A DNA stretch of 64,000 bases from a virus: IMG/VR virus record IMGVR_UViG_645058813_000002, positions 6,606-70,605 of that record; one strand, written 5' to 3'. Below, in pieces: positions 1,892-61,761 of this stretch. A model generated the notes under the pieces. The model was not told the origin of the DNA and did no database searches. It worked only from the letters and a program-made list of their open reading frames with translations. How positions within the stretch are numbered: position 1 is the stretch's first letter; each line of letters opens with the position of its first letter. The position numbers and the translations under genes are program-made.

Positions 1892-3022
1892 ATGAGTTTA
1901 GCAGAAAGAAAAGTGTATGGACAGCGAATTAAGCAAGGCAGAATTTTAAGAGGATTGTCCCAAGAGCAGCTAGGTAAAAAAGTTGGCGTTACAAGACAAG
2001 CGATATCTAATTGTGAAAAAGATAATATAAATTTAAGTACAACAAACTTATTAAAATTAAGTGAAACTTTAGACTTACCTTTGAGTTTCTTTTATAGAAT
2101 TCCAGAAGAAGATAATAGTGATAATATAATTTTCTTTAGAAGCAAAGATATTCCTAAGAAAACAAAGGAACAGTTAAGAGAAGAAATAAATATTTTCGAT
2201 AAAGAGATAGTTAAATATTTTGAGAAATTTGTTAAATTACCTAGTATTAACCTACCAGACTTAAGTGAGATATTAGAAGGTAAAAGTTATAATTATAGAA
2301 AAGAAACTATAATGGATATATGTAAGAGAATAAGAGAACATTGGGGAATTGGCAATAAACCGATAGATAATTTGGCATATTTATTACAAGTTAATGGATT
2401 TATAATAAGTAGGCAATATATAAATCAAGATAAAACAGATGCATTTTCGCAGAATATAGATGATAAAAAATATATATTTATTAGTGGAAATAAAGAATGT
2501 GCAGTTAGAAGTAGGTTTGATTTAGCACACGAATTAGGTCATTTGGTTTTGCATAATAATATAGATAAGGATGATTTTGAAGAAAAAATAATAGAAAAAG
2601 ATGCTGATTCGTTTGCATCCGAACTTTTATATCCAAGTGAAATTTTTTTAGAAGATATTCAGGATTATTCTTTAGGATTTGAGAGATTTATAGAATTAAA
2701 AGAAAAATGGAAAGTATCAATACAGCTATTGGTTAGAAAGTGCAAAGATTTAAAAGTAATATCTGATGAAAAATATATATACTTTCAAAAAAGGATTAGT
2801 TTTAATAGATGGAGAAAAAATGAACCATTAGATAATAGGATAGTATCAGAAAAGCCTAGATTATTTGAAGATGTTATAGAATTGTTGATTGAAAAAGAAA
2901 TTCTTACTAAAAAGGATCTTTTAGTAAATATAAATTTAGATAAAAAGGATATAATAAAGTATTGTAATCTAGATGAAAATTTTTTTGATGATACTTTTTG
3001 TGACATAATAAAAATTTATTAA
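1892..3022 (+). CDS. XRE-HTH + ImmA/IrrE (DUF955) Zn metallopeptidase
   Basis: N-terminal HTH (LSQEQLGKKVGVTRQAISNCE), FFRS linker, RFDLAHELGHLVLH, EKDADSFASELL. Confidence 0.92.
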   Translation: MSLAERKVYGQRIKQGRILRGLSQEQLGKKVGVTRQAISNCEKDNINLSTTNLLKLSETLDLPLSFFYRIPEEDNSDNIIFFRSKDIPKKTKEQLREEINIFDKEIVKYFEKFVKLPSINLPDLSEILEGKSYNYRKETIMDICKRIREHWGIGNKPIDNLAYLLQVNGFIISRQYINQDKTDAFSQNIDDKKYIFISGNKECAVRSRFDLAHELGHLVLHNNIDKDDFEEKIIEKDADSFASELLYPSEIFLEDIQDYSLGFERFIELKEKWKVSIQLLVRKCKDLKVISDEKYIYFQKRISFNRWRKNEPLDNRIVSEKPRLFEDVIELLIEKEILTKKDLLVNINLDKKDIIKYCNLDENFFDDTFCDIIKIY

Positions 3023-3027
3023 TATGA

Positions 3028-3070
3028 AAAAATACCGTATTATTCAGAATTGAGTAGGCGGTATTTTTTT
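3028..3070 (+). terminator. Intrinsic terminator
   Basis: AAAAATACCG...CGGTATTTTTTT hairpin followed by a T-run. Confidence 0.75.
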
Positions 3071-33256: not shown

Positions 33257-33466
33257 ATGATTAAAGAAGACATAATTTTAAACAATATTATTGAAGTTAT
33301 ATGTAAAGATGATGAAAATAAAAATTTCAAATCTATCAAAGACAAATCATATAGATTGGAAGTAATAAGATGGTTATTTATAGGTTTGGATAGAGAAAGA
33401 CAAGATTTAATATTAAGATTAATGAAAAATCAAATTATAGATCAGCTGAGTTTAGAACTAAATTAA
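33257..33466 (+). CDS. Hypothetical protein, last prophage ORF
   Basis: 69 aa, GGAGG upstream. Confidence 0.6.
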   Translation: MIKEDIILNNIIEVICKDDENKNFKSIKDKSYRLEVIRWLFIGLDRERQDLILRLMKNQIIDQLSLELN

Positions 33467-33467
33467 G

Positions 33468-33508
33468 AATCGTTGACAATACTAAAATATTGTCAACGAT
33501 TTGTCAAC
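33468..33508. repeat. Perfect 14-bp inverted repeat with 6-bp spacer plus TTGTCAAC direct repeat; candidate integrase arm sites or terminator
   Basis: AATCGTTGACAATA-CTAAAA-TATTGTCAACGATT, about 140 bp before attR. Confidence 0.6.
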
Positions 33509-33648
33509 ACTGACTAAGTTTTTATTAAAAACAATAAATGTAATGTAATGTTAATAAATTTTATACATTGCATGTAAAACCAGTAAAATCAACAGCTTAA
33601 AAGTTTATATAATGATAATAAATGTTAATAAATACTCCTATACTCTAT

Positions 33649-33720
33649 ATGGGTAACAACCCAATGGTAGGATGTACTGTTGCAGTAGCTGTTGCTGTTG
33701 AAGAAGGAATGAACAAATAG
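33649..33720 (+). other. attR: isolated 3' end of a GGGtGRT-family gene
   Basis: Translates to MGNNPMVGCTVAVAVAVEEGMNK*, the conserved GGGtGRT C-terminus; the expected upstream GLIG codons are replaced by phage DNA. Confidence 0.85.
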
Positions 33721-33729
33721 TCTTTAAGG

Positions 33730-34116
33730 TGTCACAGCAAAATAAAGTCGTGTCAAAACTGCTAAAGTCGTGTCACGAAAAATAAAGTTGTGTTAAGTAT
33801 GTATGAAAGACTATGCAAAGAAGAATGGAGCGATCCTCTTCAAATGCATAGTCTTTTTTTGCGTGTTTTGGGAAATAAAATAGGAAAGAAGCCAGAAATA
33901 ATGAGGGATGAAGCAAGATAAAACAGAGCGTAAATTTTAAGCAGCATTCGCATCGGCAGCAGCCATGAGCAGAAAACTGTAGTTAATTTAGGCTCTTTAT
34001 GACACGACTTTATTTAACCCCTAATTTTGGAAAAAAGGGGTGAGGGGTGTGGTAGTAAGGGTTCAGGGACTGCTGGAAGTGCTTTTTTCGTGACACGACT
34101 TTTTTTTACTAATACA
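33730..34116 (+). mobile_element. Miniature Tn7-like element, copy 1 (387 bp)
   Basis: Three AAAGT(C/T)GTGT(C/T)A sites at 20-bp spacing after TGT; two inverted sites at 34000 and 34091 before ACA. Confidence 0.85.
33806..33860 (+). terminator. Hairpin/terminator inside the mini-element (also in copy 2)
   Basis: AAAGACTATGCA...TGCATAGTCTTT followed by a T-run. Confidence 0.65.
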
Positions 34117-34146
34117 TAGTAGGAAAGGATTTTAAAGTAATATTGA

Positions 34147-34314
34147 AAAATAAGGAAAGATCCACGAAGATTTTATATGAAGCCTGAAGATACTTTAATA
34201 TCTTCAGATAATGTTAAATTTGTAGTTAGTAATCAGTGGGGAAAAGATAATATTGATGCATTTATAAAAGTTTCTACCGAACTTGGTTTTGAAATAACAA
34301 GAGTTGAAGTATAA
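34147..34314 (+). pseudogene. C-terminal gene remnant next to mini-element copy 1
   Basis: KDPRRFYMKPEDTLISSDNVKFVVSNQWGKDNIDAFIKVSTELGFEITRVEV*; no upstream start, in-frame TGA at 34144. Confidence 0.6.
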
Positions 34315-34336
34315 AAAAGTTTAGGAGGACTTAATA

Positions 34337-34576
34337 ATGAACTGCAGAGAAATAAAAATAGGAAAGATATATAGACATTTTAAAGGCAATGAGTATTTGG
34401 TACTTTATATGGCAAAACATTCAGAAACGCTTGAAGATATGGTGGTTTATCAGGCCCTATATGGAGAAAAAGGAATATGGGTTAGGCCTCTGAGCATGTT
34501 TTTCGATACAAAAGAAGTTGATGGTAAGATTGTAAACAGATTTGAAGAGATTGATAATGAAATAGAATTAGTTTAA
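34337..34576 (+). CDS. DUF1653 family protein
   Basis: YRHFKGNEY...HSETLEDMVVYQALYGEKGIWVRP. Confidence 0.92.
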   Translation: MNCREIKIGKIYRHFKGNEYLVLYMAKHSETLEDMVVYQALYGEKGIWVRPLSMFFDTKEVDGKIVNRFEEIDNEIELV

Positions 34577-41036: not shown

Positions 41037-41608
41037 ATGTGTATGGTTGTAGAGCCAATTAAAGATAAAAAATTGATTGAAAAGTTTTTAATACAACTTA
41101 GAGGAAAGAACTATAGAGATTGGATTTTAGCAAAATTCCAATTAAATACAGGATTGCGTATAAGTGATGTAGTTCGCATAAATACTTCAGATATTTTTAC
41201 TGATACGATGAGATTTAAAGATTACCTTGTTGTAAAGGAAAAAAAACAGGAAAAGAGAAAAAAATCAGATTAAATGAAGAACTCAGAAGGGCTATTAAAG
41301 ATTATGTTAGGGGATATGATATTAATGTAGGTGATTTCTTGTTTCAAAGTAGAAAAGGAGATAATAAATACATAAGTACAACTCAAGCATATAGAATATT
41401 AAAAGAGGCTGCTGATGCTGTTGGAATAGAGAATTTTGGAACACATAGTCTGAGAAAAAGTTGGGGGTATTGGACCTATAAGGTAAGTAGATACAACAGT
41501 GGATTAATTATGGATATGTTTAATCATACATCGGAAAAAATAACTCTAAGATATATCGGAATAACCCAAGAAGCAAAAGATGAATTATATTCCTTAGTTC
41601 AATTTTAA
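41037..41608 (+). pseudogene. Small tyrosine recombinase split by a 1-bp deletion in an A-run near 41239-41246
   Basis: NTGLRISD in the first ORF; GTHSLRKSWGY and FNHTSEKITLRYIG in the second; one added A gives KEKKTGKEKKIRLNE in frame. Confidence 0.88.
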
Positions 41609-53629: not shown

Positions 53630-54574
53630 ATGATTAAGACTGAATTTGGAAATTTTGATGGAGATAGTTGGGAAGATTTATGTCAAGTTTGTTTTCAGTT
53701 AAAATATGAAGATGAAGGTTATCAAGAAATGGTTGCGTATTCGAATGGAGACTTGGGTATAGAAGGATTTACAAGAACAGGAAAAGTATTTCAATGCTAT
53801 TGTCCCAAAGCACCGTATGAAGCGGATGAATTATACGAAAAGCAACGAGAGAAAATTAATAAAGATTTAAATAAATTAATAAAATATAAGGATGAGTTAA
53901 GGAAATATTTAGGGAATGTAAAAATAAAAACTTGGTATTTTATTACACCATATTTTCATAAAAAAGATATTGTAAAATATTGTGTTAGTAAAGCAAAAGA
54001 TATGAAAGAGTTAAAATTAGAAATTCTAGATGAGGAATTTGATGTACTAATTAATAATGTAAATTTTATTGCTAGAGAATTACCTGATGCTTTAAATATG
54101 AAGAAGATTAAAATTAATGTAAATCTTGGTGAAGAAATAAATAATAAGGATATAGAGGAATTTAAAGAAGCAGATATTGGAGGAATTAATAATTTAGTTA
54201 GAAAAAGTACAAGTTTAATAAGTAAAGAAAAGGTTCGAAATAAGTATATTGAAAAACAATTGACAAATTATTTAAAAGGCAAGAAACAAATGGATTTATT
54301 AGATTAACATTTCAAGTTTATGTATGAAAAGATAATAAATATTTTATCATCATTTGAAAGTGAAGTTGAAGATATTTGCATTTATGAAAGTGAAGAGAAG
54401 GATGGAAGAGAAATTTTAAATGTAATTGAAAAAAAGTTTGATGAGAGACTTGTTTTAGAAATAGGAGAAAATATAGATAGATCATTAATTGATTCAATAA
54501 AAAGGTATGCAATCTCAGATTGGTTAATAAGATGTCCATTTGAAATTGAAGTAGAGGAGTGTAGTGGTGAATAG
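53630..54574 (+). pseudogene. lmuA: Lamassu effector LmuA (restriction-endonuclease-like + ABC-3C C-terminal domain), in-frame TAA at 54305-54307
   Basis: GDSWEDLC...GDLGIEGF...FQCYCP nuclease; 54320-54574 is in the same frame and ends LIRCPFE. Confidence 0.75.
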
Positions 54575-54989
54575 AAAGATTATTGTTAAATTGAAGTCTA
54601 AGCCAATATCTATATCTCCAGAATACAGGTTAGAGTATAAAATATGTATGCTTGTGATAATTTTACATTTTTCATGTAGAAATAGTAAAGGTTCTGTAAA
54701 TAAAATCAATTATATTATGAACTCATTATATACTCATAAATCAATGGTAGAAATGGAAATGTCTCGAAAAGCATCAAATATATACTCCGATTTTGATAAG
54801 ACATTGAATAAAGTTCTAAATATTGCTGTACTAAGTGATATTGTTGCTATAAATGATGGACAAATATTGCTACTAAATAAAGGAGAAGAATTAATTCAGT
54901 TAATAATAGATAATGAACTATTTCTAAATGAGTTGAATTTATTAAAGAATAAAAAGAAAGATTTTATAACAGAGGGTGCTTTAAAGTGA
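54564..54989 (+). CDS. lmuC: Lamassu LmuC (ABC-three-component middle component)
   Basis: 141 aa between nuclease and SMC gene; KPISISPEYRL. Confidence 0.7.
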   Translation: MVNRKIIVKLKSKPISISPEYRLEYKICMLVIILHFSCRNSKGSVNKINYIMNSLYTHKSMVEMEMSRKASNIYSDFDKTLNKVLNIAVLSDIVAINDGQILLLNKGEELIQLIIDNELFLNELNLLKNKKKDFITEGALK

Positions 54990-54998
54990 GGTTATTAA

Positions 54999-57005
54999 AT
55001 GTTAAAAGTAAATAAATTGGTGATAAAAATATATTATACAGATAACAAAGGTAATACAAAGTCTATTTCTCCAGTCTTAGAATTTAAAGATGGAGTGAAT
55101 TTTATTTGGGATAAGGGAAAAAATTCAGTTGGGAAAAGCACATGTATAAATTCAATATTTTATGCTTTAGGTATTGAAGAATTGTTAGGAGCCAAAGGTA
55201 GTAATACAATGAAACCTGTGCTTAATAGAAAAATAGAACTAGATAATATTGAATATATTGTACAAGAAACATACATTTTTCTTGAAATTAGTAATGGAAA
55301 AGAAAATGTTACTATAAGAAGGGCTGTAAAAGGATTAAAATATGATACTAAATTAATTAGGATATATAAATCCAAAATAATTCAAATGAATAAGGAAGCG
55401 AGTTATGAAGATTATTTTGTGCATGATTCTGGTGCAGCACAAAAAGATATAGGATTTCATAGTTTTTTAGAGAGATTTATAGGGATTAATTTACCGACAG
55501 TATCCTATAATAATGATAGAACTGGAAAATTATATTTACAGGCAATTGCTAATTTATTTTTTATAGAGCAAGTAAAAGGTTGGACTGGATTTAATGTACA
55601 AAAAGTTTATTATGGTATAAAAAATGTTGAAAAAATTTCTATTGAGTATATTTTAGGTTGTGATATCACAGATGTTGATGAAAAGAGAAATAATTATAAA
55701 ATTCAACTAAAAGAAGAAAAGGATAAGTGGAAATGGACTAATGAAAAAATAATAGAAAGATTATTAACACTTGGAGACGAAATAGAGGGAGTGCATGAGA
55801 AGTATAATAATTTTGATGGAGATGATATAGAAAATATAAGGGTCTCAGGAAAATCAATTAACCAAATTAAGAAAGAGTTTATTGATAGAATTGATGATAT
55901 AAATAGACTTAAAAGCAAAAGTATAAATGAAAATATTGATTATATATATAATGATTTGAGTGAGTATGAAATAGAATTGGATAATAATCAACGTAGTGTT
56001 GAAGAGTTACGAAATCAATATAGTATAAAAAAAGTATATCATGAAAATTTAGAAGAACAATTGAAAGAGATAGAATTAAAAATAAGAAGATATGAGGATA
56101 TAGTTAAACTAAGAAAATTGGGCTCTGATAAACAGTTTAGTTTTCTTAAATCAAGATGTCCAGTCTGTGATAATAAATTGCAAGAAAGTCTTTTGCCAAA
56201 AGAAATTAATGTGGATATTATGAGTAATGAGGAGAATTTACTTTTTATTAAGGATGAAAAGAAGATTATAGAGGTAGCAATTTCAGATTGTAAAAATTCT
56301 TTAAGTGAATTTGATATGACGATTAAACTAAAAGAAATAGAAATAAATGAATTAAGAAATAAAATAAGAATTGCTAGAAGAGATTTGGTAGAAGTTGATA
56401 ACTTGCCTTCTGAAGACATTATAGGAAAGAAATATTTGTATAAGGAAAAACTTAATAAAGTAGTAGATGTTGAAAATGACGTTGAGAAATACTGGAGTGA
56501 ATTAAAAGTTATATATGATAAAATTAATCAAATAGATAAAAATATCAAAGATTTACCAAGTTCTGGTTTAAGCGAAATAGATCAGAAAAAAATTTATAAA
56601 TTTAAGAATAATTTTAGAAGATTATTAAAAACTTTTGGATATAGCAGTACAAATGTTGAAAGTATTAATTTATCAGAAGAACGATATGCTCCAGTTTCAG
56701 ATGGATTTCATCTTATGTATGATTCTGCTGGAAGTGATTTTATTAGGGCAGTTTGGGCATATTTAATATCGTTATATATGACAGCAAAAGGGAAAGGAAA
56801 TCACCCAGGAATATTAATTTTTGATGAACCATTTCAACAACAAGTTTCTGAAAGTGCTAGAGTGGAGTTTATAAATGTATTAAGAAGTATGGGGGGACAA
56901 ACAATAATTGCAACTTCATTACAAAAAGATGAAATGGAAAAATTATTGAATGATGAAACTAATTTGATAACTATAAATAATACATTTATTGAATTATCAA
57001 ATTGA
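54999..57005 (+). CDS. lmuB: Lamassu SMC-like ATPase LmuB
   Basis: NSVGKST Walker A, coiled coils with CPVC hook, ILIFDEPFQQ Walker B. Confidence 0.85.
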   Translation: MLKVNKLVIKIYYTDNKGNTKSISPVLEFKDGVNFIWDKGKNSVGKSTCINSIFYALGIEELLGAKGSNTMKPVLNRKIELDNIEYIVQETYIFLEISNGKENVTIRRAVKGLKYDTKLIRIYKSKIIQMNKEASYEDYFVHDSGAAQKDIGFHSFLERFIGINLPTVSYNNDRTGKLYLQAIANLFFIEQVKGWTGFNVQKVYYGIKNVEKISIEYILGCDITDVDEKRNNYKIQLKEEKDKWKWTNEKIIERLLTLGDEIEGVHEKYNNFDGDDIENIRVSGKSINQIKKEFIDRIDDINRLKSKSINENIDYIYNDLSEYEIELDNNQRSVEELRNQYSIKKVYHENLEEQLKEIELKIRRYEDIVKLRKLGSDKQFSFLKSRCPVCDNKLQESLLPKEINVDIMSNEENLLFIKDEKKIIEVAISDCKNSLSEFDMTIKLKEIEINELRNKIRIARRDLVEVDNLPSEDIIGKKYLYKEKLNKVVDVENDVEKYWSELKVIYDKINQIDKNIKDLPSSGLSEIDQKKIYKFKNNFRRLLKTFGYSSTNVESINLSEERYAPVSDGFHLMYDSAGSDFIRAVWAYLISLYMTAKGKGNHPGILIFDEPFQQQVSESARVEFINVLRSMGGQTIIATSLQKDEMEKLLNDETNLITINNTFIELSN

Positions 57006-58809: not shown

Positions 58810-61761
58810 ATGTCAGAATTTTTATCACTTATTAGTAACAAAATTCGAATCGAGCAGAAAGAGGCTTTAGAAAAGTTAGATGAATATCTTTCAGATAATG
58901 AAGAAAAATCATTTGCATTAATAAAAATGCCAACTGGAACAGGAAAAACAGGTGTAATTGCATGTGTGTCACACGCATTTGATAATTATAAGAATATTTT
59001 AATTATTACACCTAATAACCAATTACCGAAACAAATTAAAAATGAAATTTCCTTAGATTTTTGGAATAAGATATGAATGTCGAATCTATGTTCGAAATGT
59101 AAATATAAAATAATTAAAGGTATTAGTTCAAATATAAAAATCACTGATGAAAGAAGTATATTTATTGTTACAATCCAAGCATTATTATCAATAAAAAAAC
59201 AAAGAGAACACCTATATAATAAGTTGAAAGACAACATTAATTTGATAATATTTGATGAAGGACATAGAGAACCATCGCTAAAATGGAGAAATATAATTGA
59301 AGAATTTGAAAAGAAAACTATTCTGTTTACTGCTACTCCATATCGGAATGATAAATTGGGGTTTAAAATAGCAAGTAGATATAGTTACTATTTATCATAC
59401 GGGAAGGCTTTAAAACAAAGATATATAAAAGATGTACAGTTTGAGGCAATTGATAATAGGATAATTAATGACGAAGAAGCATTTGCTAAATACATATGTA
59501 ATTTGCACAGTGATAATGAAAAAATAATAATACGAAGTGATAATTCGCAAGATATTGCTAGCATTGTAAATAATATAAATAACTTATGCATTAATGATGG
59601 TCTTAAAAGAGGTATTGCAGTTGGAATACATAGCAGTTTTAAGAATGAGGATTATTTTAAAAAAAATTATAGTGAAATATTAAAAAAAGAGTTTTCTATT
59701 TTTGTACATCAAAATAAAATGGTAGAGGGGATAAATATCCCTGAGATTAACAAATTATTTTTCCATCAAACCTTTAAAAATTCGAGATCAATAGTACAGC
59801 AAATTGGTCGAGCAATAAGGAAACTAGATAATAATGACAATCTAGCAACAATTTATTTACCTGAAGAAGAGAAGAAAATTTATGAGGAACAGTGGCAATT
59901 ATTCATTGAATATGATGAAAAGTCTGGTAGAGAAGATAATAAAACAGGATATTTCAATAATAGATTTATAAGGAAATTTGATTTACATAATAAAGATTTT
60001 TTTAAGCAAATATATGTGCCTAAATCAGCAGTTATATACCATATAGATAGTAAAGATATAAAGTTCAAGAAGATTGTGAATTTAATTCGAGACAAAATTA
60101 TTAACCAAATACATGTAGTTGATTATAATGAAAAAATTTTCGAGAAAAGGGACATGTGGTTAATGTGCTATAAAAAAGAGAAAAATGCAGATATTTTGTT
60201 AAATGAAATTTTCGTTGAAACTACACTGGAATGTGCTGTCTTAGTAAAAGAAGAAAATATGATTTTTTATTATGATAGTAGTGGATTTAGTCTGCCAGTT
60301 CATGAATTGGAAACGGCAGTAGATCTTGTTAATAGTAATGAAATTATAAAGTTGTTAAACGAGAATTGTGATTTTAATTCTGTAAAATTAAATAACATAA
60401 TTCTTTCAGAGTTTGGAATACGGGAAAATAACTTAGTTGGAAAGTCAATACAGAATGTTAATTCAAGTTTAACCGAAAGTCTTGTTACATGTACAAACGT
60501 ATCTGCAAATGTTGAAAGTAGAGTTAAAAGAGATATAAATGTCTACTCATCAAAAGTTAAGGACAATGAAAAATGTAGTTTTGAAGAATATATGCAATGG
60601 GTAAAGGCAATTTCTAAAGAAATATTAACTAATAATACTAACTCATATTTTAAGCGTTTTGCAAAGATAGTAAATAGTGCAGAAACAGGAGATGTATCAT
60701 CAATTTTATTAAACTTATCTGAATTAGATGACAACCTTTATAAAATAATTAGAAGCAATGGAGAATATGAAAAAATTAGTGATTTTAGCAGTTGTTTTAC
60801 CGAAGTATGCAATGATTCATTTAAATTTAATATAGGTTCAGATTCCATAGAAGGGGTCTTAAAAATATATACTTATCGAAAAATGAAAAAAATAAGAGTT
60901 GAACTTACTAATAACAATTATTATATAGATAATGACGGAAGTATGGTTTCACTTGTTAATTACTTGAATAATGAAAATAAATTCACGGTAATGTTTAAAA
61001 CTGGAATAGTATATATGGGCGGCAATTTACTTAACCCTAATACTATTTATAAAGAAATTGATTTAGAAGATACTAGCATAGGTAAAATAATGTATCCAAT
61101 TTCTGAATTAGAAAGTTGCGAAAATGAAAAGTCTGGAAAAAAAGTAAATGTAAATATAATTAACTGCTGGCCCAACGATTCGATATTTGGAGTATTAATA
61201 AATTTGATAAAATCCAAAGATAAGAGGCTTTATGATGGAGAGATAGATTATCTAGTTTGTGATGATTTAGATAAAGAAATTGCAGATTTTATAGCGATTG
61301 ATACAACGAAAAATAAAGTAATATTAATTCATTGTAAACATAGTGGTAAAGGTGTAAGTGCTTCAACTTATCAGGATGCATGTGGACAGGCTAAGAAAAA
61401 CTTGGCCTATGTTATAAGAAATACAATAGATTCTCTAGAAGATAAAGTTCAATTGCATATAAATAGGTGGAATAATAACCCATGGGTGGATAAGGATAAA
61501 AAAATAGAAGTGTCACGTATAATGACTGATAAAATAACTGGAGAAGATTTTTGGGAAAAATATAAAGAAATACTTACTAATATAAATAGCACAGTTGAAG
61601 TTTGGATATTTGGAAATTTAACATCATATGGCAAATTAAAAACGCAATTAAAAAACAGTAACCCAGAGGAACAAGTAAATCAATTAATGTGGTTGCTTAA
61701 TTCAACAAATGAAACAATTTCTCAAGTGGGAGCAAAGTTAAGAATATTTTGCATGCCTTGA
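58810..61761 (+). pseudogene. SF2 (DExH) helicase with C-terminal nuclease-like domain, in-frame TGA at 59074-59076
   Basis: MPTGTGKT before the stop; DEGH, TATP, QQIGRAIR after it; C-terminal DDLDKEIADFIAID...IHCKH. Confidence 0.85.

Follow-up and report, generated by a model that had tools for sequence, protein, structure and literature searches.

The locus considered here raises the question of how the last codons of a GGGtGRT-family gene came to lie between phage DNA on one side and the end of a Tn7-like transposon on the other. It belongs to IMG/VR record IMGVR_UViG_645058813_000002, a 79.6-kb "provirus" of which we analyzed the 64,000 nucleotides at positions 6606-70605 (the window; coordinates are those of the window unless called record positions). 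The record joins one prophage, a transposon island, and host DNA to part of a second prophage. About 130 Clostridium genomes, reached through a pattern scan, were compared with this locus, and they make it probable that the 3' end of GGGtGRT is an attachment site for two unrelated kinds of mobile element in Clostridium, both of which are present in the window, and that the transposon took on its two-block form by a replicative route. One match of the pattern scan, in Daejeonella (L002), was an unrelated simple repeat.

What remains of the gene at the prophage edge is 23 codons and a TAG stop on the plus strand (33649-33720), starting ATG GGT AAC AAC CCA ATG, ending AAC AAA TAG, containing the conserved GGTAACAACCCAATGGT, and translating to MGNNPMVGCTVAVAVAVEEGMNK. 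Over 77 nt this remnant shares 100% identity with the end of the intact gene in G003, a species representative from the genus containing Clostridium puniceum, where GGGtGRT encodes 338 aa (PF14057, E 7.5e-198). The likeness breaks off sharply at 33649, with phage DNA on its left, and by this match the short frame is the true GGGtGRT tail and no chance open reading frame (ORF). The stop occupies 33718-33720, the spacer TCTTTAAGG follows at 33721-33729, and TGTCACAGC begins at 33730. A preliminary description of this DNA had already reported a GGGtGRT gene reduced to its last 23 codons and joined to phage DNA with arm-like repeats, followed 9 bp past the stop by a Tn7-like end; these observations hold, with the coordinates of the remnant slightly corrected to those given here, three copies of TTGTCAAC read to the left of 33649, and the TGT end exactly 9 bp behind the stop. 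GGGtGRT was found in 109 of 128 surveyed genomes, and across 34 genomes the nucleotide conservation of its tail over GGTAACAACCCAATGGT is 88-100%. C-terminal PF14057 fragments lying tens of kb 3' of full genes recur in many Clostridium genomes.

On the phage side, the right-hand part of a tyrosine-integrase prophage fills positions 1-33648 (plus strand) by its ORF layout, and the phage DNA stops where homology to GGGtGRT starts. Upstream of the window, record positions 146-2424 hold its integrase (int, 146-1360), ImmA-like, and repressor genes. The attR-side arm (33472-33510) holds three arm-type repeats of TTGTCAAC, at 33472 (minus), 33490 (plus), and 33501 (plus), two of which form a hairpin-like inverted pair; two further copies (record positions 80 and 91) fall outside the window and stand 55-66 nt from the stop of int. 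The prophage thus has arm-type repeats in both arms and a tyrosine integrase adjoining one att site, and the same TTGTCAAC is present in the attL and attR arms of four other genomes (G089, G033, G062, and G116). By the arm repeats, the repeats beside int, and the abrupt edge of homology, the remnant at 33649-33720 is the native tail of the gene, which stayed behind at attR when the prophage integrated. An Rfam scan of 33400-34350 returned only sub-threshold matches of miRNA models to the arm hairpin, which we regard as spurious. A second prophage-like region at record positions 75153-79625 carries paralogues of the ImmA-like and repressor genes found in the first, and no integrase was seen on its left.

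The preliminary description also implied a duplicated gene end at the left prophage boundary, and this could be checked through a relative. In G089, a prophage whose integrase is 81% identical to that of the record lies beside GGGtGRT in the order intact gene with phage-supplied tail, attL arm, int, 36 kb, attR arm, and native 23-codon fragment. Its attL and attR share a perfect 29-nt core starting at ATGGGTAACAA, the phage copy encodes the same tail, and the attR fragment begins at the same ATGGGTAACAA as the remnant in the window. By analogy, this layout may serve as the model for the left boundary of our prophage: a temperate phage with a tyrosine integrase would have recombined within ATGGGTAACAACCCAATGG and brought its own copy of the last 23 codons, leaving the gene intact at attL and the native tail at attR. 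Other fragments form a second class with an earlier start, at GCTCACGTTGAAATG (G037, G003, and a degenerate copy just past the right end of the window), and this separate start point points to at least one further integrase specificity. The preliminary description had further suggested that the replacement 3' end supplied by the phage at attL may be a second transposon target; none of the five sampled attL sites was occupied by a Tn7-like end, with one ambiguous case (G048), and such a second target is a possibility only.

The Tn7-like transposon on the other side of the remnant spans 33730-63073. The pentamer TAAGG precedes it at 33725-33729 and follows it at 63074-63078 as a target-site duplication, and each end is formed by a complete mini-Tn7-like unit, or block, in direct orientation on the plus strand. 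Block c1 (33730-34116, 387 bp) starts with TGTCACAGC, ends in ...ATACA, and carries three right-end sites of the AAAGTCGTGTCA type at 20-bp spacing (33744, 33764, and 33784), a terminator hairpin, and two inverted sites (34000 and 34091). Block c2 (62597-63073, 477 bp), which also ends in ...ATACA, has three plus-strand sites (62611, 62631, and 62651) and three inverted ones about 90 bp apart (62867, 62957, and 63048). As direct repeats the two blocks share 97.5-99% identity, leaving aside 90 bp deleted from c1, and their likeness stops exactly at the TGT...ACA termini, that is, at TGTCACAGC from 33730 and at ...ATACA up to 63073. Motifs of the AAAGTCGTGTCA type occur 13 times in the window against 2.7 expected, a number reached by none of 100 shuffles, and they form two clusters; we predict them to be TnsB sites, and their arrays are asymmetric, close together in the right end and spread and inverted in the left. 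The right end faces GGGtGRT, as the preliminary description had recognized in comparing the clustered-site end with that of Tn7 at glmS. A tandem-insertion model, in which an R-cargo-L element is followed by a separate R-L element, is ruled out, with no left end before c2 and no right end behind c1.

An empty version of this site is preserved in a related genome. In G003 the stop continues directly as TAG TCTTTTGA CTAATTG... and then a terminator, and the 81 nt after the gene are 93.8% identical to 63079-63165 of the window (plus strand), the native downstream sequence with its own terminator hairpin that follows the stop directly when the site is uninterrupted. In the record, tail and terminator are 29.35 kb apart. 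Terminators homologous to this hairpin also occur in G023 and G100. The transposon brings a terminator of its own: an intrinsic-terminator-like hairpin with a U-run (33805-33861, plus strand; dG -24.4 kcal/mol, z about -6.2 to -6.6) stands directly behind the three right-end sites, and four further end families have a hairpin equivalent to it. Such a built-in hairpin would replace the displaced terminator of GGGtGRT.

Insertions of this kind recur in Clostridium. Among 30 GGGtGRT loci sampled by profile score, with targeted cases added separately, nine have a Tn7-like end, five a phage attL, and 16 look native or unresolved; the Tn7-like ends are TGT-ended, have three sites, and begin 7-13 nt after the stop. 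We compared 14 insertions, namely that of the window and those of 13 other Clostridium genomes. All 14 have their right end toward the gene, and in 13 of them the TGT terminus lies 76-79 nt from the GGTAACAACCCAATGG motif, counted from the first base of GGT AAC AAC CCA ATG GT (GNNPMVG). The spacer of 7-13 nt offsets the difference between 21- and 22-codon tails, and the distance is independent of where the stop falls. The 5-bp flanks are all different among the 14, and at least five end families with a common AATAAAGT-like site core occupy the position. Five-bp duplications were read for the window (TAAGG), G002 (ATTAC), G037 (ATTTT), and G007 (TATTT). Block-like matches lie mostly just 3' of GGGtGRT (G007, G009, G023, G038, G048, and G069). 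Taken from these sequences, the pattern indicates independent, orientation-specific, fixed-distance insertion, and it does not fit one old inherited insertion.

The site has also been hit repeatedly within one genome. In Clostridium sp. C2-6-12 (G002) a window-type block stands alone with ATTAC on both sides; the GGGtGRT stop is followed by TTGTT, ATTAC, and another TGT-ended block, X, and the contig with the solitary block starts in the left end of X and reads ...ACA ATTAC TGTCACAGC... ACA ATTAC and then native sequence. These junctions spell out a tandem array that arose through repeated insertion at a single point. In C. puniceum a window-type block is cut by an IS91-like element. IS91-like transposase genes with a zinc-binding CxxC N-terminus interrupt Tn7-like elements in two genomes: one cuts the left end of the C. 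puniceum block (L005, G001:C14, about 1900-3044), and the other replaces tnsA/tnsB (L023, G018:C7, reverse strand, about 450-1900).

Relatives that encode their own transposition genes link the site to TnsABCD. Matches to TniQ lie near GGGtGRT in G018 and G027, and the element that occupies the site in G018 codes for a member of the TnsD family (PF15978, 9e-55). Three elements at the site are autonomous, with tnsA-tnsB-tnsC-tnsD (G037, G002, and G087). In the complete genome G037, whose layout equals that of the window except that the element is autonomous, the full gene is followed by a 48.7-kb insertion, the 3' fragment, ATTTT, a first X block, about 47 kb of interior with a small tyrosine recombinase and tnsA, tnsB, tnsC, and tnsD, a second X block identical to the first at 650 of 650 positions, ATTTT again, and the native terminator. 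Contig ends in G002 link GGGtGRT, ATTAC, a block, 59 kb with tnsABCD, a second block, ATTAC, the window-type mini-element, ATTAC, and native sequence; the 59-kb tnsABCD contig ends in ...ATCTA followed by the TGT of X, and the start predicted from this, the left end of X plus TAGAT, was then found. The same two-block autonomous build was assembled from contig ends in G087. The preliminary description had read the GGGtGRT 3' end as a new TnsD/TniQ target and integration hotspot, and that reading gains support from the further insertions at 9 of the 30 sampled loci and in the targeted cases, from the fixed distance, and from these three tnsABCD-bearing elements. We found no mention of GGGtGRT as a Tn7 target in the literature searched, including the supplements of Benler 2021 and Faure 2023. 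The end of the GGGtGRT gene is a newly recognized Tn7-like attachment site in Clostridium.

The TnsDs encoded at the site are 42-90% identical to one another and 27-29% identical to a glmS-adjacent TniQ of another Clostridium genome. The gene for the latter, a 489-aa TniQ-family protein, stands directly after glmS (L060, G096:C313, 7171-10829) and apparently belongs to a classical glmS-associated element. When 399 genomes of the class Clostridia were searched with the G037 TnsD, the sole full-length homologue was in a Clostridium genome; the other matches covered the N-terminal ~310 residues only. No close plasmid relative of this TnsD was found, the best being 36% identical. The catalytic residues of Tn7 TnsA are reportedly numbered E63, D114, and K132, after Hickman et al. 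2000 and May & Craig 1996. TnsA proteins of the clade align confidently to Tn7 TnsA (PDB 1f1z): Glu63 is kept, each of the four proteins has Thr in place of Asp114 at high posterior probability, Ser stands for Q130, and position 132 is Arg or Lys, so that on this alignment the clade appears to lack the full E63, D114, and K132 set of a catalytically competent TnsA. A distant TnsA of G002 keeps Asp at the 114 position. Upstream of tnsA in G002 and G037 lies a tyrosine recombinase of ~196 aa.

The arrangement of block, cargo, and block with a duplication only on the outside is shared by the window, G009, G002, G037, and G087. Inside the blocks the flanking bases are conserved as ACA-TAG.. and ..TA-TGT. 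In the window they are TAGTA (34117-34121) and TACTA (62592-62596), which are inverted complements, and such exact 5-bp inverted complements are found in four elements, the others being G009 (TAGTT and AACTA) and G002 and G037 (both TAGAT and ATCTA); the complementarity is partial in G027 (TAGAT and TACTA) and G087 (TAGAT and AAATA). Inspected by eye, the cargo ends of the window show no inverted repeat longer than 5 bp. The cargo of G009 (L021, G009:C1, 1659-4501) opens with a gene trio like BREX brxA, brxB, and brxC by length and order, a reading made from the translations only. Active-site mutants of TnsA produce cointegrates in which a duplicated mini-transposon surrounds the donor backbone (PMC8188705, PMC9881144), and Benler et al. 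proposed replicative transposition for tnsA-less Tn7-like elements carrying resolvases (PMC8649781). The two-block build, the Thr at the Asp114 position, and the adjoining recombinase together therefore suggest that the structure is a natural cointegrate of a circular donor with one block.

In the window, the cargo between the blocks (34117-62596, plus strand, 28.5 kb) was characterized by Pfam and PADLOC scans. It includes DUF1653 and DUF429 genes, a CoiA-like nuclease, a Cap4-like endonuclease, two GmrSD/SspE-like genes, a PLD nuclease, a Lamassu LmuB, a RES-domain protein, and a split helicase-nuclease. The LmuB-type SMC ATPase (54999-57005, PADLOC 8.8e-92) has small ORFs upstream of it (53630-54989) and is defense cargo, and an SF2 helicase with a ResIII N-terminus (58810-59076) appears split from the abutting ORF at 59077-61761 (PADLOC PDC-S71, 3e-49). 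Two ORFs (41037-41273 and 41339-41608, plus strand) with PF00589 fragments are a broken small tyrosine recombinase, the orthologue, at 40-49% identity, of the intact 196-aa recombinase upstream of tnsA in G002 and G037. No homology was found between the cargo beside c2 and the gene beside the C. puniceum copy. Genes for TnsB, TnsC, and TniQ-TnsD, usually with TnsA, as expected of a Tn7-like element, are present in G037, G002, and G087. We detected no tnsA, tnsB, tnsC, or tniQ gene in the window and no TnsB or TniQ match in the 79.6-kb record, and the window copy is therefore non-autonomous.

To the right of the transposon, the region continues as stacked cassettes. A degenerate second GGGtGRT tail, with the GCTCACGTTGAAATG start, an indel, and a stop, and three further copies of the terminator hairpin lie at record positions 70680-70870, 72418-72473, and 73560-73631; each downstream hairpin copy closes a small gene cassette, the first of which is 63285-64000 of the window. 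In G003 this first cassette is also present, and after it come a second tail and a decayed phage arm.

We propose that the Tn7-like transposon inserted between the native tail, which the phage left at attR, and the terminator belonging to the gene, with its clustered-site end toward GGGtGRT. A TnsD-type selector would bind the conserved coding sequence and direct insertion a fixed distance downstream. Since the window copy lacks transposition genes, it was presumably mobilized in trans, by an element with matching AAAGTCGTGTCA sites. Elements of this group would integrate replicatively, as cointegrates of a circular donor made of one block and cargo, and solitary blocks such as that of C2-6-12 would be what remains after two direct copies recombine.

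Several observations weigh against parts of this account. The first base of the record is already within the left arm, 145 bp ahead of int, and attL falls outside it. In G023 a 130-bp remnant of a window-type right end (L016, G023:C4, 1671-1803) is found 175 bp past the stop, on the far side of the native terminator, so the insertion position is not absolute; a similar extra right-end match lies ~480 bp past the second block of G009, and these may mark a secondary or older insertion point. The G009 element itself does not fit a simple recent cointegrate, as its blocks are 87% identical and its outer flanks, CCAAC and ATTAT, are not a duplication. The change from Asp to Thr in TnsA is read from an alignment, and another acidic residue might substitute. 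No element combining AAAGTCGTGTCA-type sites with transposase genes was found in 130 Clostridium species genomes, IMG/VR, or PLSDB; the end family of the window is therefore tied to TnsABCD by shared architecture and the site core AATAAAGT, and not by a cognate pair. The window-type two-site end motif had no match in IMG/VR, and block c2 had none among PLSDB plasmids. Two candidates for the cognate element, both in G002, were set aside: a second Tn7-like element on contig C95 has two TniQ genes and none of the site motifs of the window, and on contig C58 no end-site array was found upstream of tnsA.

Three other explanations deserve comparison with this one. An ordinary composite transposon, in which two mini-elements inserted independently around a defense island and the outer ends then moved by cut-and-paste as in Tn10-type elements, would need neither a replicative step nor a circular donor. 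It formally yields the same structure, direct copies with a duplication only outside, and it would accommodate the 90-bp indel and few substitutions between c1 and c2, the divergence of the G009 copies, and the retention of TnsA by autonomous relatives. Repeated independent double insertions, however, would not yield a two-block build in at least three end families as well as in autonomous elements, and two unrelated direct duplications would not yield conserved inner flanks that are exact inverted complements in four elements. Together with the identical copies of G037 and a TnsA without the catalytic Asp, this leaves the composite transposon unlikely, even if it is the most serious of the three competitors.

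The remaining two we regard as very improbable. If the ends beside GGGtGRT descended from one ancient, vertically inherited insertion reshuffled by homologous recombination, with no active targeting, the confinement of all cases to a single genus and the many decayed or IS-cut copies would be natural; yet the 5-bp flank and spacer differ at every insertion, the five or more end families at the position are diverged, and a close relative with an identical gene tail has an empty site. In the C2-6-12 array one duplication appears three times, as only repeated hits at a single point would produce, and recent activity is indicated by intact tnsABCD elements whose blocks are 100% identical. A similarly small chance attaches to insertion by the small tyrosine recombinase of the elements, which would make them site-specific integrative islands with the TGT/ACA blocks as recombination sites. 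That recombinase is conserved upstream of tnsA and persists as a broken copy in the window, and phages with a tyrosine integrase demonstrably use this gene end as their attB. Against this, the 5-bp duplications vary, which is a mark of staggered-cut transposition and not of shared-core recombination, the termini and asymmetric arrays are those of Tn7, the elements encode TnsA, TnsB, TnsC, and TnsD, and the recombinase of the window is broken while its element has an intact duplication.

Beyond targeted, replicative insertion behind GGGtGRT, we offer a bolder suggestion, which we hold tentatively and judge somewhat less probable than its negation: this clade may have given up cut-and-paste transposition. 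The mobile form would be a circle of one non-coding block plus a backbone with a nuclease-dead tnsA (Asp114 to Thr), tnsB, tnsC, tnsD, the small tyrosine recombinase, and defense cargo, and the integrated form would be a stable natural cointegrate. TnsD would guide replicative insertion behind GGGtGRT, and the recombinase or RecA would later free the circle and leave a solitary block as its footprint. The inner flanks ACA-TAGNN ... NNCTA-TGT, jointly a 10-bp palindrome, would be part of the donor junction and never replaced, and the window element would be a transposase-less hitch-hiker of this circle life cycle.

Attachment sites set where Tn7-like elements, and the tools made from them, land safely. 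The site described here adds one in Gram-positive anaerobes, with a protein-coding target conserved at the nucleotide level across the genus and a matching TnsD clade, and its ~80 bp of gene end serve both a tyrosine integrase and TnsD, which are unrelated as integration systems. The region also gathers stacked cassettes, which makes it a major defense-island hot spot in Clostridium. If natural cointegrates with a retained dead TnsA are real, they would be the natural counterpart of the laboratory result with TnsA mutants, and Tn7-like elements would have a new means of carrying cargo, along with their own genes, beyond the transposon ends. For annotation, it matters that this IMG/VR "provirus" record mixes a prophage, a transposon island, host DNA, and a piece of a second prophage.

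In Tn7 itself, TnsD directs insertion a fixed distance downstream of the conserved glmS coding sequence. The elements behind GGGtGRT resemble Tn7 at attTn7 in their TGT...ACA termini, 5-bp duplication, close right-end sites, and spread left-end sites; the right end likewise faces the 3' end of a conserved gene at a fixed distance and leaves it unbroken, and relatives encode TnsA-D. They differ in that the target is GGGtGRT (PF14057) instead of glmS, with TnsDs 27-29% identical to a glmS-adjacent TniQ of the same genus, that the window copy has no tns genes, that a full R-L block stands at each element end, that TnsA has Thr at the Asp114 position, and that a terminator is built into the right end.

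Closer to the two-block build are the cointegrates of TnsA-deficient systems, namely Tn7 TnsA mutants, VchCAST TnsA D90A, type V-K CAST, and Tn5053, which give the same two-copy product with a duplication only outside (PMC8188705, PMC9881144); Tn5053 and the tnsA-less Tn7-like groups pair the replicative route with a resolvase (PMC8649781). The Clostridium structure, in contrast, is natural, sits at a chromosomal att site, and belongs to elements that keep tnsA; its transposition genes lie on a "backbone" outside the mini-transposon, and its recombinase is of the small tyrosine type. As a gene end exploited by two systems, GGGtGRT recalls comM, which is used convergently by Tn6022-type Tn7-like elements and tyrosine-recombinase islands (PMC9881144); insertion into comM inactivates the gene, whereas the GGGtGRT elements preserve the frame, the phage by supplying a tail and the transposon by landing past the stop with a terminator. 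Finally, the proposed cycle resembles that of IS26 translocatable units and solo LTRs, in which a one-repeat circle gives a repeat-cargo-repeat structure and recombination leaves a single repeat with its duplication. The solitary block of Clostridium sp. C2-6-12 would be the counterpart of such a single repeat, although the repeat here is a non-coding mini-Tn7 and neither an insertion sequence with a transposase nor a retroelement LTR.

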